The translations under genes and the position numbers were made by a program. DNA of 64,000 nt from Candidatus Thorarchaeota archaeon (GTDB lineage: Archaea; Asgardarchaeota; Thorarchaeia; Thorarchaeales; Thorarchaeaceae), in assembly GCA_029858305.1 (NCBI GenBank), contig JAOUFI010000007.1, positions 763-64,762 of the forward strand. The letters run 5' to 3'. The notes under the pieces are model-generated. The model worked only from the letters and a program-made list of their open reading frames with translations. It did no database searches and had not been told where the DNA came from. Shown here piece after piece: positions 2,654 to 61,268 of the stretch; the stretch's first letter is position 1; the number at the start of each line of letters is the position of its first letter.

Positions 2654-3226
2654 TCAATTTATTTTACTTTCACCATAGAAGATTTGACCCAACTTCTTCA
2701 TGGCATCTCGAACGCAATCTTTCTTCCCGCTGACCTGTAGATACCTTTCTCCATCTAGAGATATATTCACTCTACAGTTCTCTGCAATCTCAGATATGAC
2801 CTCTACGGGAATATCTTCAGGAAGTTTGATTCGAAAGAAACCTACTTGTTTATCCCTTGGAATGTCAGAGATGTGCACCTGTGGTTCTGGCTTGTAGGCG
2901 TCGCTCTTACCCATTAATGCAGCATCAAATCGTGCTTCCCAAGTGTTTCTGTAATCTACTCCCTCTTTTTCTTCTGCCCAGACCATAAGTGTATCTCGAA
3001 GCCTTTGTATTTTATTTTCCATTTCGACCTGAAGTCGGGTATCAGCATCACACATGTCCCCTGTCCTTAACTCACTCTCAAAAGAGCGAAGATACTCTAT
3101 GCTCATCTTTGAGTTTCTAAGGTCTGCGTAAGTCAAATCCGGAATGAAAACATCTCTCTCTTTCAGAGCTCCTAATAGGTCATTTAAGACCATCCAACCT
3201 GCAAGAAGACCGTCCAACGATACCAT
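2654..3226 (-). CDS. DUF2096-like archaeal conserved protein
   Basis: W-x-VLNDL N-terminus and C-terminal RIKLPEDIP...LQVSG motif resemble DUF2096; immediately downstream of the large hdrA. Confidence 0.6.
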   Translation of the reverse strand: MVSLDGLLAGWMVLNDLLGALKERDVFIPDLTYADLRNSKMSIEYLRSFESELRTGDMCDADTRLQVEMENKIQRLRDTLMVWAEEKEGVDYRNTWEARFDAALMGKSDAYKPEPQVHISDIPRDKQVGFFRIKLPEDIPVEVISEIAENCRVNISLDGERYLQVSGKKDCVRDAMKKLGQIFYGESKIN

Positions 3227-3230
3227 TATG

Positions 3231-6200
3231 TCACTCTCTCAACATTTCTGCTGTTTCGTCGAGAATGCTCTTTTCACGCCACCAGCGGAGATCGCGTGCT
3301 CCAGTGGGGCAAATTGCACAACATGCGCCGCACCCCTCACATCGCATCTCATCAGTGACGCTCTTCTTGACACCGGGCTCAATCTCTATCATTGAAACTG
3401 CATCATACGGACAGATCTCTGAGTAGTGGCAAAGATCGCAACCAACACAAAGGTCTCTATCAACCTCTGCAGTCAGTAGTTCGATTTCCACAGTACCTAG
3501 ATTCAGCGGGATGCATGCTTCGCTTGCAGCTCCGCGAGCCTGATTGATAGAATCTCCAATGTTCTTTGCATAGGTGACACCCAGAAAAACTCCTGGAACT
3601 GTGGTTTCCACTGGCTTGTATTTCATATGCATCTCAGCTAGGAAACCATCCTGTCCTCGGTTAATGCCCATAGCTTTTACGAATTGATCGACATCATGTG
3701 GTGCCTCAAGTCCAAGAGCTAGCACTACCATCTCTGACTTAATCTTGAAAGTTTCCTGTGAAAATGTGTCGTAAATCGTGACAATCGCTGAATCACCATC
3801 TGGATCTTTCTCGATTCTAATCGGTCGTTCTCGTTCCCAGCGGAGATAGGTCACTCCCTTCTGCCTGTTTTCACGCCACATCTCTTCCATCCCTTTCGCA
3901 TATGGACGAATGTGTTCTTTATAGGCTGAAAATATCTTGATATCAGGAAACATCTCTTTCAGCTCGTGCTGCATGGCAATAGTAGCTGAACAGCAGACTC
4001 TTGAGCAATATCGATTACCCTCCCCTGGATTTTGTCTAGATCCCACACAGTGAATGAACAGGGGATTCTTAGGTGGTTTCTTCAACTCTCCGTTCCTCAG
4101 TCGCCTCTCAAGTTCGAGGGTTGAAATCACTCCAGGAACTTCGCCCCATCCATACTCACCCTGTTTTGGTTCATATACATCAGTTCCTACGGTTATCACC
4201 ATAGATCCAATACGGTGAACGGTCTGTTCACCTGTTTTTGTATTCTCTACTGATATGTCGTAGTTCCCGTAGGATCCATCTCGTGCAACAACTTTCGAGT
4301 TTAGAAGAACATGGATGCGTTTACTCTTCTCGATCCTTTCTGTAAGGTCTTCCACAATGTCTTGCGCTGAATCCATAGCTGGAAATAGATGATAAAGTTC
4401 ATTCAATCTTCCACCAAGTCTGTCTTCTTTCTCAACAAGAATCACATCGAATCCTTTTCGTGCAATATCAAGAGCTGCTGTCATACCAGAAACTCCTCCT
4501 CCAACAACCATTGATACTGGTGTCACTTTGACACTCTTTAGAGGAACAACTTCATTATTGACAGCTTTTGCCACAGCGCTCCGTATCATATCCTGAGCTT
4601 TCTCTTGCCTGACTTCAGGACCTGCGTTTACATGGACTAATGCTAAGTGCTCTCGTAGACCAACTGGTCCCACCAAGTAATATCCTGATAGTCCTGCAGC
4701 TTTCAAGGCACTTCTGAATGTTGATTCGTGCTGCAGCGGTGAACAAGATCCTACTACCACCCGGTTTAGCTTGTGCTCCTTGATAGCATCGGTTACAAGC
4801 TGCTGACCTGGGTCACTGCACATGAAGATATAGTCAGTTGCGTATGCTACATTTGGCAGGTCTTTAGCCCACTCCGCAAGACCTGGCGAGCTAATCTCAT
4901 TCCCTATAATACCACCACAATGACATATGAAAACTCCAACTCGTGGTTCATCGCCAAGGTCCGCTGGAGGAATTTCTGGTTCTGGTTCTAGTGTTGGAAT
5001 CGGCAGAATCGAATGAGCTGCCATTGCTGCTCCTTTTCCTTCATTAACACTATCTGTACCATCCCGCGGGCCATGGGCACATCCTGCAACGAAGATACCT
5101 GTACGATTTGTTTCAAGGGCAGCCGCGTTGGCGTGTTTTTCTTTAATCCATCCAGCTTCATCAAGATCTATCTTTAGTATCTTTGAGAGTTCTTCTACAC
5201 CTTCACTGGGTCTGAAGCTACTATTGAGAACGACCATGGAAATCTTGTCGAGCTCGATTATCTTACCCGAATCTGTATCCTCCATCTTGACATACAGGTC
5301 ATGTGTATCAGGATTCTCTTGAATCTCAGATACCCTGCCTCGAATGAACTTGATACCCCGATTCTTCTCAGAGTCCCATAGGAACTCTTCAAGTGCCTTT
5401 CCAGCTGTTCGCATGTCCATGTATGTATAGATTATTTCACAGTGATCCTCAGGATAATGCATCCGAGTTACTTGTGCCAGCTTTAATCCGAATGAACAAC
5501 AGACTCTATTACAATGCGCACTGTATCCACTGATATTCTCTCTAACATCTCTACTTCCTACGCAGTTCACAAACAGGACGTGTTCCGGTTCCTTCCCATC
5601 TGATGGACGAACCATATGGGAATCAGTAGGACCTGTGGGGTGTGATTGCCTATCATACTCCATTGAAGTTACAACATTAGGAAAAACACCGTACCCATAC
5701 TCTCCATAATCCAATGGCCTATATTCTTCAAACCCAGTGGCCACGATTATGGAGCCAACGTGGAGATCGAAAACCTTGTCTTCATCATCATACATGATGC
5801 AATCCTGTGGACAGATTGATGCGCAAGTTCCACAGCCAATACAAGCGTTCCTGTCGATTGTTGCGATTAATGGGATTTGTTGTGGAAAGTTCATGTAGAT
5901 TGCTTTCCGGAGGGAGAGCCCCTTGTCATACTCATTCGGTACTTCTACCGGACATGAACGAATACACAATTGGCAACCAGTACATTTGTCCTCATTGACA
6001 TAGCGGGCTTTCTTTCGAATCGTGACAGTGAAGTCGCCCTCTTTTCCAACCACCTTCTCGACAGTTGATAATGGATGGATGGTGATATTGGGATGCTTCC
6101 CTACAAAGGAAGTGAGAGGAGTCATAACGCAGGCAGAACATTCCAAAGCTGGGAATATCTTGTAGATTGCTACATAGTTCCCACCAATATTCACGGTCTT

Positions 6201-6335: not shown

Positions 6336-6583
6336 AGGAATATTCTCCAAGGTACTATTGCAACAAGAGCTCGAGCGGAGCGGGAGATATAATCTTTCTG
6401 TCACGACCTTGAGCATGTGAAGAATTTAGCACACGTGTTCTAACATGATAATTGAAGATGCTTTATCAGCCTTAAGGAATGCCCAAATCAGTGGATTCAT
6501 TCCTGCAACAGCTATTTACTCCCATATCACATAGTAGCTAGTAAGTTAGAGCAGGTGAGGGAAAACATCCCTATGCTCCATTT

Positions 6584-7672
6584 CTATTCGGCTGCTCTTC
6601 CTCGCTGCTTCTGATAGATATAAACAATCGAAGCGAAAACTATCGCGAGTAAATAGAGAATAATTGGAATCCAGAGGAATTCGAGCCGCATCAGGTAGCT
6701 GAAGCCTCGACCATATCCACCGAATTCTGTAGGTAAGTAGATCCACGCTAGAGCTCCAAAATAGAGTGCAAAGACAATCCATCTGTACTCTCTCCTTACT
6801 TTGAAAATATACATGTAGGTGAACACGAACATGAACGCAAATCCTGAGGCGAACATTGGCCACATATCAGGTGACGTAGAAGGACTCATTATCGTGTTGT
6901 AGACAGCTACAAAGAACGCATGCACACCTACAAAGCTCTCAAGAAGAACAATCCAACCACGATTAAGATGGACTACTGTATAAGCCAAAGAGAGCTGTGT
7001 GAACAGCAAGAACATGTAGAAGAATCCTGTCAACAGCTGGGGGTCATAGGTCATGGGATGGAACCAGAATGTATACACTAAAGCCCATGCGATAATGTAT
7101 GGATGATTTCTTCTGAAAAATCCTGAAACTTGTGCTGTTATCGGCTTACCCATTTTTCGTCCCATGAAAAGACCGCGCCTTGGATGTTCAATAATCAGGA
7201 TAATGACTAACATCACAATGACTGAGCCTTGACTGGTCCATATAGGAACGTCCTGAGCAAGTCCATCGAACCATATCTGTGTTTGAATCAAATGCAGGAT
7301 GATGAATGCTACATTGATCAGAATCGTAGCCCAGTTATACCTTGTGAGCCCTCTCGTGGGTTGAGTACGATATATCTTCAGGTTCTTTTGAGCCCAGTAT
7401 ATAGCTCCCCAGATTGCAAATTGGTGACTGAGATAGAAACTCCACACAACCAACATGACCATAAAGTCTCGCGCTGGTAATTTCCAAAAGTACCAACTAG
7501 CTCCTAGGTCTGGCCCAAGGGTTGCAAGGACAGGATCAAGGAATGGACCCAACGCCCAAATGATGAATGTGAACACAATTGCAAATAACAGACTTCCAAT
7601 CCAAGCATAGTATGCAGTCCGTGAATCCTGCTTCGTATCCAATTCTTCAGGTTTGGTGTTCGATTCATCCAT
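6584..7672 (-). CDS. Polytopic membrane protein of unknown function
   Basis: 362-aa ORF with about 9 hydrophobic segments. Confidence 0.75.
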   Translation of the reverse strand: MDESNTKPEELDTKQDSRTAYYAWIGSLLFAIVFTFIIWALGPFLDPVLATLGPDLGASWYFWKLPARDFMVMLVVWSFYLSHQFAIWGAIYWAQKNLKIYRTQPTRGLTRYNWATILINVAFIILHLIQTQIWFDGLAQDVPIWTSQGSVIVMLVIILIIEHPRRGLFMGRKMGKPITAQVSGFFRRNHPYIIAWALVYTFWFHPMTYDPQLLTGFFYMFLLFTQLSLAYTVVHLNRGWIVLLESFVGVHAFFVAVYNTIMSPSTSPDMWPMFASGFAFMFVFTYMYIFKVRREYRWIVFALYFGALAWIYLPTEFGGYGRGFSYLMRLEFLWIPIILYLLAIVFASIVYIYQKQRGRAAE

Positions 7673-7773
7673 TGATTTTCAACCCGCAGTAACAGAAATC
7701 ATGGGCTGACCCGGTATTTATAGTATTCATAAGGTATAACTTGCCCTTTGTAAAATAATACCATGGTGTCTGA

Positions 7774-8106
7774 ATGACAAAAGAAAAGATATTGGCCCAA
7801 CTCAAGACTCTTGGAGAGCGATTTCAGGATCCGAAGATTCAGCGTAGGTTTAAGGATTATAATAAAGCCCTCCAGTTCATCTTCCCTGATATTGATGCAA
7901 AGATGTACATGAAAATAGGAGATGCCATACTTGAAGAGGTTGCAGAGGGAGAGATTGAATCAGAGTTGAAGGTGACAATGGACTCCAGTGTCTTCTTTGG
8001 CATAATGGATAAGACAGAGAGTCCCATGGCTGCCTACTCTGCAGGAAAACTAAAGACTGTGGGAGAGGTTCCTGACCTTTTGAAATTGCAGAAACTACTT
8101 CTCTGA
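7774..8106 (+). CDS. Stand-alone SCP2 (sterol carrier protein 2) domain protein
   Basis: SCP2-type pattern LKVTMDSSVFFGIM...PMAAYSAGKLKTVG...LLKL. Confidence 0.8.
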   Translation: MTKEKILAQLKTLGERFQDPKIQRRFKDYNKALQFIFPDIDAKMYMKIGDAILEEVAEGEIESELKVTMDSSVFFGIMDKTESPMAAYSAGKLKTVGEVPDLLKLQKLLL

Positions 8107-8445
8107 TTTTGGTCCCTTTTCCACAACCATCGAAACTAACTCTCGCATTCGAATCATCTGACTTCTTACATGTTCGCCTCCTTCCATAGTCAACACAGCA
8201 AAAGTCGTTGGTTTGAGATCGACAAATCTCTTCGATATTCGAATCAGTCCCATTTCTTCCAATTTCCTAAGATGACTTGATAGATTCCCTGATGTGAGTC
8301 CAAGTTTCTTCTGCAAGACTGGAAAAGTTGCGTGTTGCGTGAAATAGAGATAGACAAGTATAGAGAGTCTTGTGGGAACCATCGTTTCACGGTCTTCTTC
8401 CATGAGTCCTACCAATTTAGATAGGAGATCCCCATCCAGACTCAA
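8095..8445 (-). CDS. Winged-helix transcriptional regulator (ArsR/MarR-like)
   Basis: RLSILVYL...LGLTSGNLSSHLRKLEEMGLI wHTH motif. Confidence 0.85.
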   Translation of the reverse strand: MSLDGDLLSKLVGLMEEDRETMVPTRLSILVYLYFTQHATFPVLQKKLGLTSGNLSSHLRKLEEMGLIRISKRFVDLKPTTFAVLTMEGGEHVRSQMIRMRELVSMVVEKGPKSEK

Positions 8446-8447
8446 AT

Positions 8448-9125
8448 CTATCCCTGTCCTTTGCTTTCTAGAAGTAGTTGTTCAGCTGTGACAAGCATAT
8501 AGATTCCAATTACGTAAATGCCGCCCATATCAACTACGACTAGAAGAACATACGAAAAGATGGGAAACATCAACATTGGGATTATGCTGAGAAAGGTGAC
8601 TAATGCAAAGTAGAAATGTTCCCGAGTGACGAGCCCCTCCTGCACGCTTTTCCTTGCCAATAGATAGTTGGAAAGAAAACCAGTTCCCATGATTGATTGT
8701 AGCACTGGAGGGAATTGACTTGTCATTCCTGATGGAAATAGAATAAGTGAAACTACCACAATCGCTGCTCCCAGAATTCCCCAAACAGCGAAGACATACT
8801 TGCCTTCTACATCACTTTGGGGTTGTTGGGGATAGGAACGTGTCAGTGGTACTATCAGTCTAAAAGCGACAATCCAAGAAAAGAACAGGCTTAGAAAAAC
8901 AAATCCTAAATTGAGTAGGAATGGGTCTCCTGGTCCCAGAATGTTCAGTAGAAACATGAAAGTCAATGTCGTAAATGATATTCCTCCAGCAATAATTATG
9001 TACACTAGACCAGCTACTCGACGTCCTACAACGACTGGATACTTGTCAATCAGGTCTGTGAGCAAAAGGAGCTGCTTTGCTTTTTCGATCATTTCTTCAT
9101 TTTCTTCGGAATTCTCTGGGCTCAT
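8448..9125 (-). CDS. Membrane protein, coupled to the wHTH gene
   Basis: About 6 TM segments; 2-nt gap to the regulator gene. Confidence 0.75.
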   Translation of the reverse strand: MSPENSEENEEMIEKAKQLLLLTDLIDKYPVVVGRRVAGLVYIIIAGGISFTTLTFMFLLNILGPGDPFLLNLGFVFLSLFFSWIVAFRLIVPLTRSYPQQPQSDVEGKYVFAVWGILGAAIVVVSLILFPSGMTSQFPPVLQSIMGTGFLSNYLLARKSVQEGLVTREHFYFALVTFLSIIPMLMFPIFSYVLLVVVDMGGIYVIGIYMLVTAEQLLLESKGQG

Positions 9126-9195
9126 GCACTCACCTCAGTATTATGTGCTATTTTCACTTTCAAACTCTCCCTAATAACTCTACCAGAAAAAGAAC

Positions 9196-9213
9196 GGAGT
9201 CCCGAAGGACTCC
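9196..9213 (-). terminator. Hairpin terminator after the ABC permease
   Basis: Minus strand GGAGTCC-TTCG-GGACTCC (7-bp stem, UUCG loop) followed by GTTCTTTTTCT. Confidence 0.7.
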
Positions 9214-10373
9214 TAGCGAGTACCCTGTCTTCCGAACAGGATAATTCCTACTGCAATGAGTAAGACTCCCACTAATGACACGATGGCCAGCTCAACCCAG
9301 ATTACTGTAGCAGTAATCGGAGCTCCTCTGAGGAACAGAGTTGCTATCGCGTTGGTGATGTGCTTGCTTGGCATGAAGTTTGCGAAAACCTCCATTCCAC
9401 CTCCAAGTGGCATGAATGTGCCAAAAAATAGCTGGGGCATGATGAATGCAAAGCTTATTCCTGTTGATGTTTCAGCTGACTTGGATAATGTCGCTGAGAT
9501 GAGACCGAAGCCTACAGACACCAGTGAGAATGCTAGAGAGATCACAAATGTGAAGCCTATTCCTGCAATTCCGGTTTGGGGTCTGTAGCCAATCATGTAC
9601 GAGGCTGCAAGGACAAGAGTGACCTGGACTACTGCAATAATCATATAGGAAAAGGTGTGACCCAGCATGTAGTCAGCTGATGAGGCCGGTGTTGTCCTCA
9701 GTCTCCTCAGGAGACCCTCATCCCTCTCTACAGTCATCGATTGTGCTACAATCATGGTCATGAATATTGCTGCGAATGCAAAGATTCCTGGTGCCATGAA
9801 ATCCCACTGAGTGAGAGTACTAGACTCCACGAGAGCAGGACTACCAATATCTACAGGCAGACCCATGGCCATTGCGTCCTCTCCAAATATTGACTTAAGA
9901 AGAGCCTCTTGAACAAGCGGGGGAACAGCTGAGACTGCCATCATTGACCCGCTATCGACATACAATCCAATTGTTGAGTTGTCCCAAGCACTAGGATCGA
10001 ACGGAGAACCATAGTACGATTCGATGCTGACACCGAAGCCTTCAGGAATCACAATGAAGGCATCAAGATTTCCTTGTAGGAGTGCGTCTTGTCCTGTGAC
10101 ATTGTCATCAAAGTGATGGATGACAAATACTTCTGATGAAGTGAGGTTGTTAGCAAAAGCTTGACTCCACTCCGCCTGTGGACTAGTAACATCCTGATTC
10201 AGAAGACCAACATCGAAACTCGTTGTGCCTCCTCCACCAATACCACCAAATGCAAGTCCAAACACGAAGGTCATCGCAAGGGGGAATATGATTAGCATAA
10301 AGAGGACAGCTGGTTCCCTGGTCATCATTTTCAGATTCTTCTTTGTTAAGGCTAAAATTCGTCGTCGGTTCAT
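9213..10373 (-). CDS. ABC-2 type exporter permease
   Basis: N-terminal TM, extracellular domain, 5 C-terminal TMs, ERDEGLLRRLRTTP motif. Confidence 0.9.
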   Translation of the reverse strand: MNRRRILALTKKNLKMMTREPAVLFMLIIFPLAMTFVFGLAFGGIGGGGTTSFDVGLLNQDVTSPQAEWSQAFANNLTSSEVFVIHHFDDNVTGQDALLQGNLDAFIVIPEGFGVSIESYYGSPFDPSAWDNSTIGLYVDSGSMMAVSAVPPLVQEALLKSIFGEDAMAMGLPVDIGSPALVESSTLTQWDFMAPGIFAFAAIFMTMIVAQSMTVERDEGLLRRLRTTPASSADYMLGHTFSYMIIAVVQVTLVLAASYMIGYRPQTGIAGIGFTFVISLAFSLVSVGFGLISATLSKSAETSTGISFAFIMPQLFFGTFMPLGGGMEVFANFMPSKHITNAIATLFLRGAPITATVIWVELAIVSLVGVLLIAVGIILFGRQGTR

Positions 10374-52947: not shown

Positions 52948-54087
52948 ATGGCTGAAGACGAGTTTCTTGGCGCAAAGCCGATTGTCATTGACAACGGCAC
53001 TGGATTGAGCAAGAACGGATACGCCGGCGAAGATCAGCCACGAAGTGTCTGGCCGACTCTGATTGGTTATCCAAGATATGAGTCAATCATGACCGATGTT
53101 GATCACTACACACGTGACTACTACATCGGTGAAGAGGCTATCAACCTACGTGGTGTCCTACGTCTGGTTTACCCGATCTCTCATGGAATTGTAGAAGACT
53201 GGGATGCCATCGAGAAGATTTGGAGCTACACGTTCTATAACGACTTGAAGGTAGACCCAAGCGAGAACCCGGTGCTCCTCACTGAGGCACCATTCAACCC
53301 CAGAGAGAACAGAGAGCGTATGGCCTCCGTCATGTTTGATAACTTCGGAGTACCCGCAGTATATGTTGCCACACAGGCAGTGCTATCACTGTACGCATCT
53401 GGTAGAACAACTGGTCTAGTCATCGACTCTGGTGACGGTGTGACCCACATAGTACCAATCTATGAGGGCTTCTCAATCAATCATGCCATCCGCAGAATCG
53501 ATTTAGCTGGAAGAGACATCACCGAGTATCTGCGCAGACTACTCAGACAGAGGGGTTACTCCTTTGTCAGTGGTGCAGAGAAAGAGATTGTCAGAGATGT
53601 CAAAGAGAAGCTATGTTACGTAGCTCTCGATCCCGAGAGGGAACGAACTGTTGCTGACAAGGCTGGTGTCGACAAACCCTACATGCTTCCTGATGGTGAA
53701 GTAATCACTGTTGGTGCAGAGAGGTTCCAAGCTCCTGAGTTGTTCTTCAACCCAAGTGCTATTGGTCTTGACACAATGCCACTCGATGAACACATTGTCG
53801 AGTCAATCAAGGCTTGTGATGTCGACTTGCGACGTGACCTGTACGCCAATGTTGTGCTATCCGGCGGTTCAACTATGTTCCCTGGACTCAAGGAGAGACT
53901 CCACAAGGAGATCACCGAACTAGTACCCGAGAACATCGAGGTTCGTATCATTGCTCCACCAGAGAGACAGTACTCTGTCTGGATTGGTGGTTCTATCCTC
54001 GGCTCACTGAAGACCTTCCAGAAGATGTGGGTCTCAAAGAAAGAGTTCGAAGAAGTCGGACCCGAAGTCATACACCGCTGTATCTAG
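52948..54087 (+). CDS. Asgard (Lokiactin-type) actin
   Basis: [73 protein letters not shown]; ATG 52948 behind GAGG. Confidence 0.97.
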
Positions 54088-54139
54088 TATACAATTAGTT
54101 TACCGAAGAGGGAGTCTTTCCCTCTTCGCTCTCTTGTTT
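54038..54139 (+). repeat. Actin 3' end + terminator, copy 1 (functional gene)
   Basis: Direct repeat of 54775-54870. Confidence 0.9.
54104..54128 (+). terminator. Actin terminator hairpin
   Basis: CGAAGAGGGA-GTCTT-TCCCTCTTCG (10-bp stem) followed by a T-rich tract. Confidence 0.75.
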
Positions 54140-54146
54140 TTCTATC

Positions 54147-54698
54147 TCATTGCTTGTCTTCATCGGAATCAGTTTGGTTCTTTTGCCACCATGGCGGCTT
54201 CTTTTCCAAAAGTTCATCCTCAGGTTTCTTTATTCCTACATTTACAATCCGTATGACAACAAGACCTAGTATAAATTGGAAGGGTAGTGGTCCCGCATAG
54301 ATCCCACTAGTATAAGCTTCAAATGGAAATGAAATTCCTAGAAAGAAAATGGGTATAACCAAGCTCAGAATACCCGAAATGATTGTCCATCGTTGAGCAG
54401 TTGGTTTTATGCAATAGTACGTGACCTGAAGAGCATAGATTACGAAGAATAATAATAACATAAAAATCACCGCCACATACATTGGTCCAATCATCCATCC
54501 TGATGGCTCAGCTCCTCCAGGTGGAGAATAAGATCCAAAGAGGAAATAGTATATTGGTTCCATTTCCCATCCTATTCCTGCTTGGTATGAAAGCGAAATC
54601 GAACCTATGACCAACGGTGTCAAAAATGTCACGCACCATAACAGGAGTAGTCCAAGCTTTGCCTGCCATCTATTTATAGAACTCATCCAATCCCTCAA
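54147..54698 (-). CDS. 4-TM membrane protein lying between the two actin 3'-end copies
   Basis: 183-aa hydrophobic ORF, the only gene between the repeats. Confidence 0.75.
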   Translation of the reverse strand: MRDWMSSINRWQAKLGLLLLWCVTFLTPLVIGSISLSYQAGIGWEMEPIYYFLFGSYSPPGGAEPSGWMIGPMYVAVIFMLLLFFVIYALQVTYYCIKPTAQRWTIISGILSLVIPIFFLGISFPFEAYTSGIYAGPLPFQFILGLVVIRIVNVGIKKPEDELLEKKPPWWQKNQTDSDEDKQ

Positions 54699-54774
54699 TT
54701 ATCAATAGATCACAGTCGGAAATAAATCTCTTCAATAGTAAAAGTATGTACTAGATATTTGATATCAAATTTTT

Positions 54775-54870
54775 AGAAAGAATTCGAGGAAGTAGGACCC
54801 GAAGTCATACACCGCTGTACCTAGTCTGTTCTTGGTTTACCGAAGAGGGATGCTCTTCCCTCTCTTGTTT
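54775..54870 (+). repeat. Actin 3' end + terminator, copy 2 (orphan fragment)
   Basis: Encodes [15 protein letters not shown] and keeps an AGAGGGA/TCCCTCT hairpin. Confidence 0.9.
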
Positions 54871-54899
54871 TAATTGCTGAATTAAGAAAGGCAAATCTA

Positions 54900-55898
54900 T
54901 CATCTGTAGGGGCAAAACGTGCTCTCGATGTAGGAAAGGTCTTCCTCAATATTTCTCCTTAACTTGGTCAGAATTTGCTTACTTCTCTCATCAAGTGCAT
55001 CAAAGGAGCCCTTGTCAGCTAAATCGTAGTCCATGTTCAGTGCAATATAATGAATGAACTCGAACAATTTCAGTGCCTTTGACAAATCCTCTGCCCACAA
55101 CTTGTTCAAGTGATTCTCTCTCTGATATCCAACCATGAAGTGCTTGAGATAGATGTCCGCAAACTCACGATTAGTCATACTCTCTGGTTTCTCCCATATT
55201 GAAAATCCAAGTGCGTTAGCGATATCGAAGACGAAGAAACCGTATGCACAATCATCAAAGTCAAGGATAGTAAGTCGCTTGTCATCCAGGAATAGATTGG
55301 CATGGTGGACATCCTGATGAATTAGTCCAAATGAGTCGCGTGAAGTTGGTTTATCCTTGAAGTATTCCATAAGTGCATCGAATCGTTCAAGTACCCTTTC
55401 CTGGTCCGATGGAATCCATGCACGGCGCAAATATTCATCGTCATACCATTGTATTCGTCCAGTTACTTTTGATGGTGGTCTGTAGTCCTTTGTGAGTCTG
55501 TGCATTAACCCTACTGCTTCTCCCCATGTTTGGAAAAGCTCTGGGGAGAAATCATCCTTTGTTACCAGATGACCAGGTGCCCATTCAAAGCATACAACCG
55601 AGATCGCTCCTGCATCGGTATCGACTGTTTCAACGAGGTTATTGCTCTGAGAAGGGATCACACGTACAACCGGTGCATCATGCTCAGATAGGTATGCCAA
55701 CCAGTTCATCTCCGCCTTCACTTCAGCCTGCGTCTTATGACCTGGTGGAGTGACCCGCACGACGAGCCTATTTTCGGTAGCATCAAACCCGAACATCTTG
55801 TTCTCGTACCCTCCCCCGAGCTTCACGAGTTTGTTTACTACGAATCCATAGAGAGTTGAGGCTTCTTCAAGTGCGGTTTGCAACCAGTGTTCGGTCAT
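54900..55898 (-). CDS. APH/type II homoserine kinase-like phosphotransferase
   Basis: LVVRVT, GLIHQDVHHAN, ILDFDD (Brenner-type motifs); start at ATG 55898. Confidence 0.88.
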   Translation of the reverse strand: MTEHWLQTALEEASTLYGFVVNKLVKLGGGYENKMFGFDATENRLVVRVTPPGHKTQAEVKAEMNWLAYLSEHDAPVVRVIPSQSNNLVETVDTDAGAISVVCFEWAPGHLVTKDDFSPELFQTWGEAVGLMHRLTKDYRPPSKVTGRIQWYDDEYLRRAWIPSDQERVLERFDALMEYFKDKPTSRDSFGLIHQDVHHANLFLDDKRLTILDFDDCAYGFFVFDIANALGFSIWEKPESMTNREFADIYLKHFMVGYQRENHLNKLWAEDLSKALKLFEFIHYIALNMDYDLADKGSFDALDERSKQILTKLRRNIEEDLSYIESTFCPYR

Positions 55899-56115
55899 CT
55901 CCCGTTTTTCTCGGAATGCTACATAAGATGGTTGCGAACAATGCAATAGGATTGAGTGGTAGCCTCAAATATAACAATATTAGAGGGTCTTATTATGCAT
56001 ACTACTCATTAGTTTGGTTCATCAATGCCAGCAAAAGCTGATCTAGATTATGTATGAATTCTGAAGGCAGGCTACATTGCCCACCTTCATATTCGTTTAT
56101 GATGTCAGTTTATGT

Positions 56116-56751
56116 CTAAATCTCATTAGCTTTAGATGTTCCCATCAAGTAACCGCCGAAGCTAATAATCCAAGCGAGAATTGGATAGATTGCCCAACGT
56201 TCCAATGACCCTTTTGCCATCCCAAGAAATGTCTCTGTAGAGCCAGCTGGAAGACCCAAATAGGGTATGAAGACAATTGATAGAACGATTGACATCAATC
56301 CAAGCGTAGCTGCCATTATTGACATTGGTTTACTCTGGAACGAATACGAACCAATGGCTGCTAGCGCTCCAAACATAATTGCTAGCAAGGTAGCAACACT
56401 ATGCATAGGCTGAAGATTAGCCGGGAATATCCCTACGCCCATTGCACCGATTCCAGAAATCGTCAAGAGAATTGGAAGAAGCTTTCTCTCTGTAGCCTTG
56501 AACAAGAAAAATGCACCAAAGACCATGAAAGCTCCGAGCAAGAAAACAGAAAGATTGTAGATTAATGCAGTCGGTCCAGTTCCAAGGTCACTGACATAGT
56601 CAATGCGGCTACTATAGCCATCATACCATGACTCCGCAGCAAGAATGCCCAAGAACCACTGAATACCTCCGATTAGGAAGAAGCAACCACTTACTGCTAT
56701 CTTATCAAACCGTTCTACTAGATTTGTTAGTGAAGTTGTAGATTCTGTCAT
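56116..56751 (-). CDS. DUF998 family membrane protein
   Basis: YS...YVSDLG, GVGIFP, H..A, G.LER motifs. Confidence 0.82.
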   Translation of the reverse strand: MTESTTSLTNLVERFDKIAVSGCFFLIGGIQWFLGILAAESWYDGYSSRIDYVSDLGTGPTALIYNLSVFLLGAFMVFGAFFLFKATERKLLPILLTISGIGAMGVGIFPANLQPMHSVATLLAIMFGALAAIGSYSFQSKPMSIMAATLGLMSIVLSIVFIPYLGLPAGSTETFLGMAKGSLERWAIYPILAWIISFGGYLMGTSKANEI

Positions 56752-56973: not shown

Positions 56974-58227
56974 TTGGCAATTACGTCTTGGATTCCTGTC
57001 ATTGTCCTTGCAATCGTCTTTTCAATGATTGCCATCAGAAAAATTGGTAATGTCCGAGTAAAGATCTGGCAAGCAATGACCATTGGAGCAATAGCAGTTT
57101 TATTGACAGGTCAAATTTCACCGTTCGATGCTCTTTCCTCAATCAACATTGACGTGATGCTATTTCTCTTTGGTATGTTTGTTGTAGGGGAAGCAATGCA
57201 GAGAAGTGGTTATCTCAATATCTTATCATTCAAACTATTTCATCATGCCAAGAATGCGAATCATCTGGTTCTACTAATTCTTTTTCCAATAGGTCTATTG
57301 TCGGCAATTCTAATGAATGACACTCTAGCAATCATCGGTACACCTGTCATGCTGAGTATCTCAAAAAGACAGAACATTTCTTCCAAGCTTCTTCTTATGG
57401 CATTAGCTGTAGCAGTCACGACAGGAAGTGTTCTAAGCCCCATTGGTAATCCTCAGAATCTCTTAATAGCAAGCTCTGGTATAACAAACCCGTTTGTGTC
57501 TTTTCTACAGTATCTGTTCTTGCCTACATTAGTTTCATTGGCAGTTGCCTTCCTCATTCTGAAGATATTCTATAGAAAGCACTTCAAGTCTGAAGTTGTC
57601 CTTGAAAACTTTGATACTAGTACACCTGATGATGGGTTGATCAAAATAGCTAAGCTGTCATTGGGCCTGCTTGTGATTCTTATTGTAGTGAAAATAATCC
57701 TTGGGATAGTAGCGCCATGGATAGATCTAAGACTATCGTACATAGCTCTCATTGCCTCGGTGCCAATTCTCCTACTAAGCAATCAAAGAGTGAAGATTGT
57801 CAAAAGCATCGACTGGTCCACACTACTATTCTTTGCTTCCATGTTTGTCCTGATGGCAAGTGTCTGGTTGAGTGGCTTTTTCCAAGAACTTCTGATTAAT
57901 CTTAGTCTGGACGTAACTTCAATTCCAATAATAATGATAATCGGTGTATCGTTCAGCCAATTAATTTCAAATGTACCTCTTGTTGCCTTGTATCTTCCTC
58001 TCCTCACAATTTCTGGCTCTACTATTCCTCAATTGATGGCGCTTGCCGCCGGAAGTACAATCGCAGGAAACATGCTTATTCTCGGCGCTGCTAGTAATGT
58101 GATTATCATACAGAATGCGGAGAAGCATGGAGAAACTCTAAGTTTCTTAGAATTTGCGAAAGTAGGGATCCCGCTTGTTGGTTTACAAACACTAGTGTAT
58201 CTACTATTCTTGGGTACGCTGGTTTGA
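56974..58227 (+). CDS. ArsB/NhaD (IT superfamily) anion transporter
   Basis: SAILMNDT, SPIGNPQNL, QLISNVP, LGAASNVI. Confidence 0.88.
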   Translation: MAITSWIPVIVLAIVFSMIAIRKIGNVRVKIWQAMTIGAIAVLLTGQISPFDALSSINIDVMLFLFGMFVVGEAMQRSGYLNILSFKLFHHAKNANHLVLLILFPIGLLSAILMNDTLAIIGTPVMLSISKRQNISSKLLLMALAVAVTTGSVLSPIGNPQNLLIASSGITNPFVSFLQYLFLPTLVSLAVAFLILKIFYRKHFKSEVVLENFDTSTPDDGLIKIAKLSLGLLVILIVVKIILGIVAPWIDLRLSYIALIASVPILLLSNQRVKIVKSIDWSTLLFFASMFVLMASVWLSGFFQELLINLSLDVTSIPIIMIIGVSFSQLISNVPLVALYLPLLTISGSTIPQLMALAAGSTIAGNMLILGAASNVIIIQNAEKHGETLSFLEFAKVGIPLVGLQTLVYLLFLGTLV

Positions 58228-60062: not shown

Positions 60063-61268
60063 CTAAGAGTCCTGTTTCTGAAGTTGGGCTATTTTTTCTC
60101 TAACCTTATTCAACTCCCCAACGCGTTTCTTGACTCCTCCCTCAGCTTTATCGATTCTTTTTTGAATATTCTTGATTTTATCCTCAATCGTTGAAATCTC
60201 ACGTCTTCTACGATTTTCTGCCTTCTCATATTCCCCTTTTGCATCATCCCACTCTTGCTTTGCAAGTCTCATCTGTTCATTGATACTTTCATATTGTATC
60301 CTCTTGACCTCGGCTTTATTTTGGCTCTCCCTAACACGAGCGTCTAGTTGTGAGCTTATGGCAATTTGATTAGCAGTGACAAGTTGAACCTCCCTATGGA
60401 GATTTCTTAGTTCAGTCAGGAAATCCTTGATTTTTCCATCTTGAAGATCCTCTGAATTTGTTATGCAGGACATTATTGCATCCATCTCTTGTCCGGGAGT
60501 TTCTTGCACTACAGTCAGTGGAGCAATATTAGCAGGTTCAATAGTGGAGGGCATTGTCGTAGCCAAAGTTTCTGGGCTTTTTCGAGGTTGCCGCTCCATC
60601 ATGGTGGTTTGCCTCTCTTGCGGTATTGAACGACTCTGAGGAGCTACCATTGAATCTGGTGGTTCTTTCCTAGATTGCGGTGATGCGATTATTGGAGCAG
60701 GTGTGGATGGAATTCTTTCTTTTTCTTCGAAGGTCTGCATTGGGATCGATTTTGGTGCAACAGCAAGAGGTTTTTCATGTACTGTATTCGTTGCTCTTTG
60801 GATGGTTTGGCTTGGTGCCCTCTCAATTGGATGTTGAGGAGTCTGGGGCTGAGAAGACACGTCCTGCATGAGTTCTCTTACCTCACTTGCTCTGAGCATT
60901 CTGGTTTCAACAATGTCTCCTCCCTCCTCTTGAATACCGACTTTTTCTGCTCTAGCAAATGCTTCCTTCGCCTTTTCCATCTCGGACTTTCCTCTACTGG
61001 AAGATGATGTTCTCATTCTATCCCTGGATATCTCGCTTGGTTTCACCCATTGGTCGCCCGATGTGACGCTAGGCGTTGTGGATACTGGTTTAGCTGGTAC
61101 TTCTGGTTCTGGGTATGATTTTGATTTGTCAATCTCAGATCTGCTTGTTGCTTCTACAGGTGTTTTTATTGATTCGTCAACTTTCGTGGTAAAAAGAGGC
61201 TTGCCACAACGAACGCAATATTTCCTTATTGGATTGTTTGCCTTTCCACAGCTTGCACAAGTTCTCAC
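60063..61268 (-). CDS. Zn-ribbon + disordered linker + coiled-coil protein
   Basis: CASC...CVRC N-terminus, P/S/T/Q-rich middle, heptad-rich C-terminal 120 aa or so. Confidence 0.75.
   Translation of the reverse strand: MRTCASCGKANNPIRKYCVRCGKPLFTTKVDESIKTPVEATSRSEIDKSKSYPEPEVPAKPVSTTPSVTSGDQWVKPSEISRDRMRTSSSSRGKSEMEKAKEAFARAEKVGIQEEGGDIVETRMLRASEVRELMQDVSSQPQTPQHPIERAPSQTIQRATNTVHEKPLAVAPKSIPMQTFEEKERIPSTPAPIIASPQSRKEPPDSMVAPQSRSIPQERQTTMMERQPRKSPETLATTMPSTIEPANIAPLTVVQETPGQEMDAIMSCITNSEDLQDGKIKDFLTELRNLHREVQLVTANQIAISSQLDARVRESQNKAEVKRIQYESINEQMRLAKQEWDDAKGEYEKAENRRRREISTIEDKIKNIQKRIDKAEGGVKKRVGELNKVREKIAQLQKQDS

Follow-up and report, generated by a model that had tools for sequence, protein, structure and literature searches.

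Copies of the actin 3' end bound the gene cassettes of an array common to a genus of Thorarchaeia

The 3' end of the actin gene is an insertion site in a genus of Thorarchaeia: as a preliminary description of a single locus had suggested, different cassettes stand directly behind actin throughout the genus, each with a copy of the actin tail as its boundary. The locus lies in a window of 64,000 nucleotides from a Candidatus Thorarchaeota archaeon, and we found it to be one unit of a multi-cassette array common to the genus, whose cassettes turn over and reshuffle between species. Among known organisms, Asgard archaea stand closest to eukaryotes, and the way in which they acquire genes bears on models of eukaryogenesis. 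Here, a recurrent gene-exchange hotspot with defined borders is attached to the actin gene itself, and at least 41 accessory gene families have moved in and out across one genus with no known mobility enzyme involved. We hold with moderate confidence that cassettes are gained and swapped by recombination at the portable actin tail, most likely through host homologous recombination.

The duplicated actin end in the window

The actin gene that anchors the array (52948..54087, + strand, 379 aa) matches Pfam PF00022 (Actin) with an E-value of 4.5e-133. It is intact in all genomes compared, and its protein is 97-100% identical across 24 genomes of the same genus. The gene's final 51 nt serve at the same time as left arm of the primary repeat copy, unit 1 (54037..54146, +), which nhmmer recovers with a genus profile (E 4e-32, profile positions 2-112). 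This left arm (54037-54087, +), reading AAG AAA GAG ... ATC TAG, comprises the last 17 actin codons including the stop codon TAG, and is followed on the same strand by a 16-nt spacer (54088-54103), a perfect 10-bp hairpin (54104-54128, CGAAGAGGGA/TCCCTCTTCG) and a T-rich tract (54129-54141, CTCTCTTGTTTTT). The hairpin was seen both in the fold and in a pattern search for which 0 matches were expected by chance; the same search for further hairpin and T-tract remnants in the window recovered unit 1 only. The secondary, non-coding copy, unit 2 (54775..54875, +; nhmmer E 1.9e-25, profile positions 3-110), retains all four parts, codons, spacer, hairpin and tract. Its pseudo left arm (54775-54824) ends in TAG, its shortened hairpin (54844-54863) folds more weakly than that of unit 1, and its T-tract occupies 54864-54871, all on the + strand.

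Without gaps, the direct repeat pairs 54038-54122 with 54775-54859 (85 nt, 84% identity, 737 nt from start to start). With gaps it spans approximately 54037-54146 and 54775-54875, and BLAST aligns the second copy at 82% over 103 nt (E 7e-23). When the whole 3.04-Mb assembly was searched by BLAST with unit 1, two copies only were returned, unit 1 and unit 2. The preliminary description had reported an actin tail of about 100 bp repeated 737 bp downstream and enclosing only the gene of a 183-aa membrane protein, and both the direct repeat and the list of open reading frames agree with this. The coding differences are, as it had also stated, mostly synonymous, three of the four being silent (GAG/GAA, GAA/GAG and GTC/GTA) and one changing Ile to Thr (ATC/ACC). 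Unit 2 carries an allele unlike that of its own genome's actin at 2 of 7 synonymous polymorphic sites, and two private substitutions. Since the two copies are 18% apart and the same architecture is present in many other assemblies, an assembly artefact is implausible, and the duplication is confirmed as genuine. The insertion event in the window genome is ancient and the distal copy is decaying. We favour, with medium confidence, the reading that the 740-bp segment is one old cassette of the genus-wide array behind the actin 3' end.

The sole open reading frame between the two units, c17 (54147..54698, - strand), encodes a membrane protein with no Pfam match above the cut-off. Read from a TTG it is 183 aa long; the conserved ATG at 54686, giving 179 aa, is the more likely start. 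The gene evolves with a dN/dS of 0.18-0.24 and a conserved MSS start. Other genomes have eight homologues of it in their actin arrays, where the position is 1, 2 or 4. The gene occupies position 1 in the window genome (G000), G018, G021 and G010, position 2 in G007 contig 84 and G006, and position 4 in G020 contig 424. Its upstream (promoter) region (54699..54774, -) is kept along with it in G007 contig 84, at 79% overall nucleotide identity, and moves together with the cassette. The c17 cassette of the window is common to another lineage, with 79% DNA identity across it, and comparison of G007 contig 84 with G000 places a nitroreductase cassette exactly between the actin stop codon and the c17 right arm.

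Further downstream, the APH-family kinase gene c10 (54900..55946, -; Pfam PF01636, E 6e-31) is probably an older cassette; it stands immediately behind a unit in G022 and in G043 contig 129, and its order relative to the DUF998 gene is reversed in G007 contig 84. The DUF998 membrane protein gene, c4 (56116..56751, -; Pfam PF06197), is probably also an older cassette, one whose unit has decayed in the window genome; among the examined c4 carriers, a unit or a right-arm remnant directly precedes the gene in 10 other contigs. The CitMHS-family transporter gene c7 (56974..58227, +; Pfam PF03600) is unit-flanked in other genomes, with units on both sides in G010 contig 228, L093 and L100, and two lineages that are 7% apart in actin DNA share it at 99% identity. 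The conserved distal border of the variable region is c1 (60063..61268, -), which encodes a zinc ribbon, a disordered region and a coiled coil; nearly all relatives have it on the distal side of their variable genes. Flanking the array are, at one end, actin with a CARF-wHTH gene and, at the other, this coiled-coil protein. As a candidate recombinase c1 was rejected, having no Pfam family and no meaningful PDB match or structural relative.

Actin-tail arrays across the genus

The preliminary description had proposed a comparison of actin-downstream regions in relatives, and this comparison brought out multi-cassette arrays. The ~105-nt unit is present in 25 of the 28 genomes of the genus, with up to 6 BLAST hits each, and 14 of 19 fetched loci hold 1-3 extra copies less than 12 kb from actin. 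With metagenome contigs added, the count reaches 137 units on 66 contigs, with 8 as the highest number on one contig. Metagenome-assembled genomes (MAGs) make up all of the data, and some of the MAG contigs coincide with metagenome contigs, being the same assemblies. All units share the orientation of actin and are spaced 230-3321 nt apart (median 762 nt). Distal copies begin 51-60 nt before the actin stop, none contains more of actin, and more than 20 independent ones have nearly identical left and right borders. The cassettes between units hold 1-4 genes, mostly single genes, on both strands and with their own upstream regions; their cargo amounts to 41 protein families that vary between species and shift array position, and the genes are mutually unrelated and under purifying selection. 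Arrays recur in different samples, as in L093 and L122, which are 99.7% identical over 5.2 kb. The contigs of several relatives end at the actin 3' end or at units, and because contigs often break at units the array lengths are underestimated. The units explain the frequent breaks of MAG contigs at actin in this genus; future genetic tools could also use them as a natural landing pad and, at ~105 nt, they make a simple PCR probe for cassette diversity in sediments.

Within 12 kb of actin, no actin-tail array was present in 11 genomes from other Asgard genera and families. A parallel array stands behind the 16S rRNA gene of the same genome that carries the actin array; judged by eye, actin and 16S units have no obvious common motif. 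Together, the two arrays point to a general docking of cassettes at conserved gene ends, either integrase-free or reliant on an undiscovered recombinase.

The right arm of the unit consists of a 16-20-nt spacer, a GC-rich hairpin of 10-11 bp and a T-rich tract. On folding, only the 10-bp terminal hairpin forms, and the coding arm is unstructured. RNAalifold returned no consensus on 53 right arms because hairpin alleles A and B align out of register; we therefore scored the hairpin with a structure given by hand, under which 92% of cells are paired and pair 31-48 shows a compensatory change, being GC in 24 sequences and AU in 23. A dyad, GATACA-CCGC-TGTATC, overlaps the last actin codons; it has a 4-bp spacer, is dictated by the coding sequence and is degraded in old copies. 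An Rfam search of the unit at E-values up to 10 gave chance matches only, so that attC or any other known RNA or DNA family is without Rfam support.

The distal tails were imported with their cassettes and decayed neutrally thereafter, because they carry synonymous alleles of other lineages' actin and their later decay is even over codon positions. Across the 7 polymorphic synonymous sites, 22 of 27 distal arms are unlike the actin of their own genome, and 23 of 27 equal the actin allele of some sampled lineage with 0-1 differences; two tails use AGG for Arg, which occurs in no sampled actin of the genus. We examined codon positions in 19 well-preserved distal copies. All differences that match real actin alleles (42/42) fall at third codon positions, in agreement with the earlier proposal that the downstream copies descend from functional actin alleles, and the 44 private differences are distributed 15/16/13 over the three positions. 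The left arms of old copies decay evenly, without a protected core. Among distal units alone, decay has no significant gradient with distance from actin (rho -0.21, p 0.23), and the gradient along arrays is significant only when the primary copy is counted in; a rule of newest next to actin is therefore not established. Strain-to-strain differences in the arrays are found at distal positions too.

Breakpoints, enzymes and the route of cassette gain

Between near-identical strains, the breakpoints of cassette exchange lie within units or at their edges, but not at one fixed base: in a small sample, the three mapped lie in three different places. The right arm moves with the downstream cassette, as seen when G016 contig 181 and L106 are compared. 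These are identical through the left arm up to TAGTATAC, past which hairpin A and one gene stand against hairpin B and c17, which puts one breakpoint just after the stop codon of the actin tail. Another, from a pair of strains with 99.7% identity along 5.2 kb, falls in the hairpin of a unit that consists of the right arm only, and the third within the c7 gene. As the positions are bounded only by the first mismatch, two of the three also fit a crossover at a fixed core. Such variability of the breakpoints speaks for exchange driven by homology rather than for a classical integrase reaction of the attL/attR type. The pattern seen in the preliminary description, of tail-flanked inserts and a restored actin gene, is supported.

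No integrase had been noted at the locus originally, and none was found in the window cassette, among the 41 cassette families, where Pfam gave no recombinase or transposase, or in the whole window assembly, which is devoid of PF00589, PF00239 and PF01797. Across the genus, PF00589 and PF00239 each occur in 8 of 28 genomes and PF01797 in 1 of 28, with none of the three on a unit-bearing contig; the PF00589 search was positive in 14 of 14 control genomes. Some 70 inter-unit segments, on about 40 multi-unit contigs, contained no integrase, integrase fragment, or viral or plasmid hallmark. A search of viral contigs for the actin 3' tail near an integrase had been proposed: four scans of IMG/VR with the coding core and both hairpin alleles gave one chance match in GC-rich DNA and no viral carrier of the unit. 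In the metagenome scan, credible unit contigs resemble chromosomal arrays and carry actin when they reach upstream, and the few remaining matches are chance 18-mers. An integrase-bearing element using the actin unit was found in none of the 28 genomes, 39 metagenome loci or IMG/VR, an absence that, being based on MAGs, is not proof.

In the mechanism that we propose, the ~105-nt unit would be the recombination module, made of a left arm (the last 17 actin codons with the stop) and a right arm, and a cassette would run from a right arm through 1-4 genes with their own upstream region to a left arm. Entry could occur by a single crossover of the Campbell type, between the actin-tail copy of the cassette and a resident unit, or, with linear donor DNA, by a double crossover that involves two units. 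By either route an intact actin end and terminator would be regenerated, and a non-coding actin tail would remain distal to the insert. Host homologous recombination would be the agent, with the actin tail, which is highly conserved, as portable homology between species, and the cassettes would encode no enzyme. We infer both the intermediate, circular or linear, and the enzyme responsible. With 51 nt at 80-100% identity, the arm is shorter than many organisms require for homologous recombination to be efficient. Nor does such recombination by itself account for the initial joining of new genes to a unit, or for the nearly identical left border of all distal copies, 51-60 nt before the stop, which a founding site-specific element would explain.

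The nearly constant borders of the more than 20 independent distal copies are also what a dedicated site-specific recombinase acting in trans on the same array would produce, and the array would then be a true integron analogue, an explanation that we entertain only tentatively. A chromosomal gene of an unrecognised family might encode the enzyme; alternatively, viruses or plasmids that the MAGs lack might supply it. It would act on the unit, for instance at the GATACA-CCGC-TGTATC dyad by the stop codon, or at the hairpin. The explanation gains from the strictly uniform orientation of units, the maintenance of the hairpin by compensatory change, the mostly single-gene cassettes (median ~0.76 kb) with cargo like that of chromosomal integrons, and the parallel arrays behind the 16S rRNA gene. 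It is weakened by the absence of tyrosine, serine and Y1-HUH enzymes from G000 and at least 20 of the 28 genus genomes, and from every unit-bearing contig; by the lack of the unit on viral contigs; by breakpoints at three or more places, one within a gene; by the even decay of old left arms; and by actin and 16S units that look unrelated by eye. A broader version, possible but in our view doubtful, is that Thorarchaeia have a native gene-capture system, evolved independently of integrons, in which an unrecognised trans-acting recombinase inserts, excises and shuffles cassettes at conserved gene ends. Cassettes would then bring a replacement for the last ~100 nt (coding end and terminator) of a host transcription unit that is both highly conserved and highly expressed, actin at this locus and the 16S rRNA trailer at another site of the genome.

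Integration classically gives rise to direct repeats of a gene 3' end, and each cassette could be the stump of a larger integrase-bearing provirus or integrative plasmid that once used its own tyrosine integrase to enter the actin 3' end and afterwards shed all but part of its cargo. At tRNA-targeting elements such as tycheposons, tandem accretion and degenerate remnants are documented (10.1101/2020.12.28.424599), and the fixed borders would follow from a founding event of this sort. We nevertheless think this improbable for the cassettes at large: the ~70 segments on ~40 contigs hold no integrase, fragment or hallmark, they are uniformly small (230-3321 nt), and the same single-gene cassettes are intact at different array positions, unlike the independent decay of large elements. 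Least credible by far is a local origin, by slippage or unequal crossing-over in the actin terminator region, by misassembly, or by decay of a tandem actin paralog. Direct repeats may have a local origin, repeats can cause misjoins in MAG assemblies, and several relatives' contigs do break at the actin 3' end; against this stand the 18% distance between the copies, the alleles of 22 of 27 distal arms, unlike those of their own actin, the unrelated inter-unit genes under purifying selection, and the same arrays in different samples (L093 and L122, 99.7% over 5.2 kb). In-place duplication is rejected for most copies on the grounds of these synonymous-site alleles. The decayed tandem paralog, named in the preliminary description as the scenario that would overturn it, is excluded, with a second actin-body fragment in 0 of 47 contigs and every distal copy starting 51-60 nt before the stop.

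Relation to known systems

Tycheposons of Prochlorococcus accrete in tandem at the 3' ends of tRNA and tmRNA genes and leave cargo-only remnants (Hackl et al., bioRxiv 10.1101/2020.12.28.424599). As in these, each insert lies between direct repeats of the 3' end of its target gene, the target is restored, degenerate copies are scattered further into the island, and content varies between close relatives. The actin array differs in that its target is a protein-coding gene, its repeat includes the terminator, its inserts are mostly single genes of ~0.8 kb, none of the ~70 examined carries an integrase or replication module, and no tyrosine recombinase can be detected in most of the genomes.

Integrons and integrase-less attC clusters (CALINs) are known in Asgard MAGs (Ghaly et al. 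2022, PMC9668308), and archaeal examples are mostly without an adjacent integrase, with six IntI found against 539 attC sites (PMC9668308). The resemblance lies in small, mostly one-gene cassettes between structured repeats of ~100 nt, in an order shuffled among relatives, and in a cargo rich in GNATs, NUDIX, DinB, toxin-antitoxin genes and orphan membrane proteins. Unlike integrons, the actin array has no IntI and no attI; an IntI-type gene is absent next to it, and PF00589 is found nowhere in G000. Judged by fold and Rfam against the attC criterion (an imperfect palindrome of 55-141 nt, a single long hairpin and R/L boxes), the unit is a host gene's coding end with a short terminator hairpin, whereas attC is a long imperfect palindrome. 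Integron cassettes are promoterless, co-oriented and driven from Pc, whereas those of the actin array lie on both strands with their own upstream regions. Xer/dif modules (IMEX, pdif) differ in that they use the host Xer, which is absent here, PF00589 being missing from G000 and 20 of the 28 genus genomes; their site has two 11-bp arms and a 6-8-bp centre (28 bp), and the possible counterpart here is the actin-end dyad, with its spacer of only 4 bp.

CIMEs of Streptococcus are att-flanked, cis-mobilisable elements without recombination genes that derive from accretion at ICE sites, and are thought to move by an enzyme supplied in trans or by recombination between their repeats. The actin cassettes are likewise flanked by att-type direct repeats of a gene 3' end and lack recombination genes; CIMEs arise from identifiable integrase-bearing ICEs and coexist with them, whereas no parent element was found for the actin unit. 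Finally, Nobusato and colleagues (Gene, 2000) reportedly proposed insertion with long target duplication for restriction-modification genes of Helicobacter; these cases are said to involve target duplications of ~100 bp with no transposase or integrase, and to have been attributed to a circle carrying a copy of the target. The actin array shares the ~100-bp duplication around an insert without mobility genes and the variable breakpoints (three mapped). The Helicobacter cases are sporadic and not restricted to a site, whereas in this genus one actin site is reused throughout, building arrays.

The duplicated actin tail and its genus-wide array

The preliminary description had read positions 54038-54870 of the window as a duplication of the actin 3' end and terminator around one gene, resembling the attL/attR ends of integrated elements. 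The direct repeat is indeed present: 54038-54122 and 54775-54859 align without gaps over 85 nt at 84% identity, 737 nt from start to start, and with gaps allowed the homology covers ~54037-54146 and ~54775-54875. When copy 1 was used as query against the whole 3.04-Mb assembly (G000), it matched only itself and copy 2 (82% over 103 nt, E 7e-23), which rules out a dispersed repeat or a chance match. Copy 1 ends a bona fide actin gene (52948-54087, plus strand; Pfam Actin, E 4.5e-133) and comprises the final 17 codons including the TAG stop, a 16-nt spacer, a perfect 10-bp hairpin (54104-54128, plus strand, found by folding and pattern search) and the tract CTCTCTTGTTTTT. Copy 2 keeps all of these parts, with a shortened hairpin. 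Its former coding part differs from copy 1 by three synonymous changes and one Ile-to-Thr, and the copies bracket only one ORF, that of a membrane protein (family c17; 54147-54698, minus strand); the preliminary description was right on both points. An APH-family kinase gene lies to the right of copy 2 and is convergent on it.

The duplication in the window is one unit of a genus-wide array in Thorarchaeia (Asgard archaea). Comparison of actin-downstream regions in relatives, proposed in the same description, was made by fetching up to 12 kb downstream of actin in 19 same-genus genomes and searching it with a profile of the primary copies. One to three extra actin-tail copies were found in 14 of the 19 loci; one contig of G016 carries three, with segments of 1.6, 3.3 and 3.1 kb in between. 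By BLAST, the 105-nt unit (left arm, the last 17 codons; right arm, spacer, hairpin and T-tract) has matches in 25 of the 28 genus genomes, up to six in each, and many of the matched contigs are short, with a unit at their start or end. We then retrieved the BLAST-matched contigs and, with an 18-nt coding core, scanned JGI metagenome contigs, reaching a total of 137 units on 66 contigs, 41 of them with at least two units, counts that are redundant in that MAG and metagenome contigs are partly the same assemblies. Every array sequence comes from a MAG or a metagenome contig, and contig breaks shorten arrays; the longest has eight units on one 10-kb contig (L093). Units are spaced by a median of 762 nt (range 230-3321 nt), and every credible unit has the orientation of actin. 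No second actin-tail copy was found within 12 kb of actin in 11 Asgard genomes of other genera or families.

Comparing the G000 assembly with itself for local direct repeats, we found seven direct copies of a ~95-nt unit outside the window (contig C205:128849-137697), 0.8-2 kb apart, with unrelated ORFs in between and a T-tract at the end of each copy. A gap of 8 nt separates the last copy from the 3' end of a 16S rRNA gene on the minus strand, and this 16S-type unit is multi-copy in 17 of the 28 genus genomes (up to 8 copies). The C205 array is a second cassette platform, behind 16S; its unit, like the one at actin, consists of the final ~100 nt of a conserved transcription unit as far as the terminator.

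Cassettes, their cargo and the source of distal tails

Gene order varies among the arrays. The c17 gene is first in G000, G018, G021 and G010, second in G006 and in contig 84 of G007, and fourth in contig 424 of G020. The order in contig 84 of G007 is actin, unit, nitroreductase, unit, c17, unit, DUF998, kinase; that in G000 is actin, unit, c17, unit, kinase, DUF998. To the left of c17, both genomes have the same distinctive spacer AATTAGTTT and the same hairpin, and the actin-adjoining unit of contig 84 has a spacer and hairpin as found with the nitroreductase cassette of G017 and G022. Since right arms stay with their downstream genes (c17; nitroreductase), a cassette consists of spacer, hairpin and T-tract, the gene or genes, and an actin-tail copy. 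A unit or right-arm remnant lies directly before the DUF998 gene (c4) in 10 other contigs among those examined that carry it, and the transporter gene c7 has units on its flanks in some genomes and none in others. Two allele classes of the hairpin compensate at pair 31-48, which is G-C in 24 sequences and A-U in 23; 92% of cells are paired.

The c17 cassette and both flanking units share 79% DNA identity between G000 and G007, which shows that the insertion in the window is old. c17 is a genuine gene: its dN/dS against seven homologues is 0.18-0.24, and its start at 54686 is conserved. A TTG (54698) opens the 183-aa ORF, and an MSS motif four codons downstream is the start of all homologues; translation probably begins at the ATG at 54686, for a protein of 179 aa.

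We took as cargo the ORFs of at least 80 aa strictly between units, which form 41 families. Those named by Pfam include GNAT acetyltransferases, NUDIX, thioesterase, nitroreductase, SDR, S9 and S15 peptidases, a beta-lactamase-fold hydrolase, FAD oxidoreductase, metallophosphatase, cytidine deaminase, DUF1801, a three-gene ABC transporter, an ArsR regulator, a PIN-like toxin and a 1038-aa HD/B12/radical-SAM fusion; there are also many orphan membrane proteins. No recombinase, transposase, viral or plasmid hallmark was detected by Pfam in the 41 families. In locus L050 (G016:C244), three cassettes between units hold a cytidine-deaminase/TPR protein (1262-2758 of the oriented locus), a four-gene block with no Pfam family (3089-6138) and the 1038-aa fusion of HD, B12-binding and radical-SAM domains (6356-9472); these might be defence-type genes.

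In all well-preserved distal copies, homology to actin runs from 51-60 nt upstream of the stop codon through the T-tract and no further. The preliminary description had itself named a competing scenario, a tandem actin paralog decayed to this fragment; we looked for it and it is excluded, because none of the 47 contigs checked (0/47) holds any other fragment of the actin body. We compared 19 well-preserved distal left arms with the genus consensus by codon position. All 42 differences that are alleles found in real actin genes fall at third positions (42/42), and 44 private differences are spread evenly (15/16/13 at positions 1/2/3), a pattern which shows that the arms were copied from functional actin genes, as had been proposed, and later drifted without coding constraint. 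Real actins vary at seven synonymous sites; there, 22 of 27 distal arms are unlike the actin of their own genome, and 23 of 27 are within 0-1 differences of an allele from one of the sampled lineages. Two arms use AGG for Arg, found in no sampled actin of the genus; the tails were thus mostly imported with cassettes, not duplicated in place. In unit 2 of the window, two of the seven sites depart from the resident actin, and there are two further private changes.

Enzymes, breakpoints and mechanism

Tyrosine (PF00589) and serine (PF00239) recombinases were each detected in 8 of the 28 genus genomes and Y1 HUH transposases (PF01797) in one; all three are absent from G000, and no match lies on a unit-bearing contig. 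With no integrase among the 41 cargo families either, the statement that none is present stands, recombinase absence from incomplete genomes being suggestive, not proof. Scans of IMG/VR for the coding core and for both alleles of the hairpin did not turn up the proposed viral carrier of the actin 3' end. The border gene c1, conserved on the distal side, encodes a zinc-ribbon and coiled-coil protein. As a separate observation, 20 of the 28 genomes, G000 among them, have no detectable Phage_integrase-family protein and hence no XerA-like recombinase, in a search that matched 14 of 14 control genomes, of which four are archaeal. Such an absence would be unusual in archaea, unless it reflects completeness or divergence.

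The nearest process described is the tandem build-up of integrase-bearing elements at tRNA/tmRNA 3' ends, accompanied by partial-tRNA repeats and degenerate remnants; tycheposons are an example (Hackl et al., 10.1101/2020.12.28.424599). However, the target here is a protein-coding gene, and an integrase is found in no insert, nor in most genus genomes. Asgard MAGs are reported to be enriched in integrons and in attC clusters that lack an integrase (Ghaly et al. 2022, PMC9668308). These resemble the actin array in cassette size, cargo and shuffling, but when IntI, attI, attC folding and co-orientation were each tested in the array, none was found. Our literature search returned no description of cassettes at actin.

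Three breakpoints could be placed. Contig 181 of G016 and metagenome contig L106 are identical through a left arm as far as TAGTATAC; their breakpoint falls directly after the stop codon, beyond which hairpin alleles and genes differ between the two until they are alike again from the next conserved gene. Between L093 and L122, from different samples, 99.7% identity over 5.2 kb ends at a breakpoint inside the hairpin of a right-arm-only unit, and between L093 and L100 the breakpoint lies inside the c7 gene. The c7 block of the latter pair is 99% identical although the actin DNA of these lineages differs by 7%, which shows transfer between lineages. With n=3, and each bounded by the first mismatch only, the breakpoints still do not indicate one fixed crossover position.

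A single crossover between the resident actin tail and its copy on an incoming circle would yield the observed structure, and a double crossover at units, with linear DNA of a relative as donor, would do the same; either route would regenerate actin and its terminator and place the donor's tail distal. We favour host homologous recombination as the agent, giving it an even chance, because known site-specific enzymes are lacking, breakpoint positions vary, old arms have no protected core and cassette genes have clearly recombined internally. A dedicated recombinase acting in trans is a possible, though less probable, agent and a serious rival, consistent with the borders common to copies, the strict orientation of units, the maintained hairpin, the one-gene size of cassettes and the presence of another platform. 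It is improbable that the cassettes are decayed integrase elements that were once complete; this fits poorly, as ~70 inter-unit segments hold no trace of such genes. The first linkage of a new gene to a unit is explained by none of these models.

Other repeats and unusual actin genes

Two further repeats were seen in the same genome. On contig C34:45909-49984, a whole tRNA gene together with ~40-200 nt of flank occurs four times (81-96% identity). The copies bracket small ORFs of 64-130 aa with no integrase nearby, and form either a cassette array anchored on tRNA or a family of tRNA genes. On contig C17:8446-14936, a 62-98-nt direct repeat occurs three times (78-84% identity), 2-4 kb apart among unrelated genes.

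In metagenome contigs of one sub-lineage of the genus (L099, L106 at 7829-9029 as oriented, L109 and L130), actin contains two 30-nt inserts that no other actin of the genus has. Insert 1 comes in frame after codon 10; insert 2 comes after ...WSYT and has two TAG codons in frame. Each folds as a small hairpin. Because actin would be truncated unless insert 2 is removed, we consider them candidate mini-introns in Asgard actin mRNA. Finally, the actin of a distant Asgard genome (L091; G026:C1:534612-547700) has an apparent frameshift ~25 codons before its end, at about 1060-1210, and a normal C-terminus, ...KEYQEAGAGVIHRCF*, can be read in another frame just downstream.
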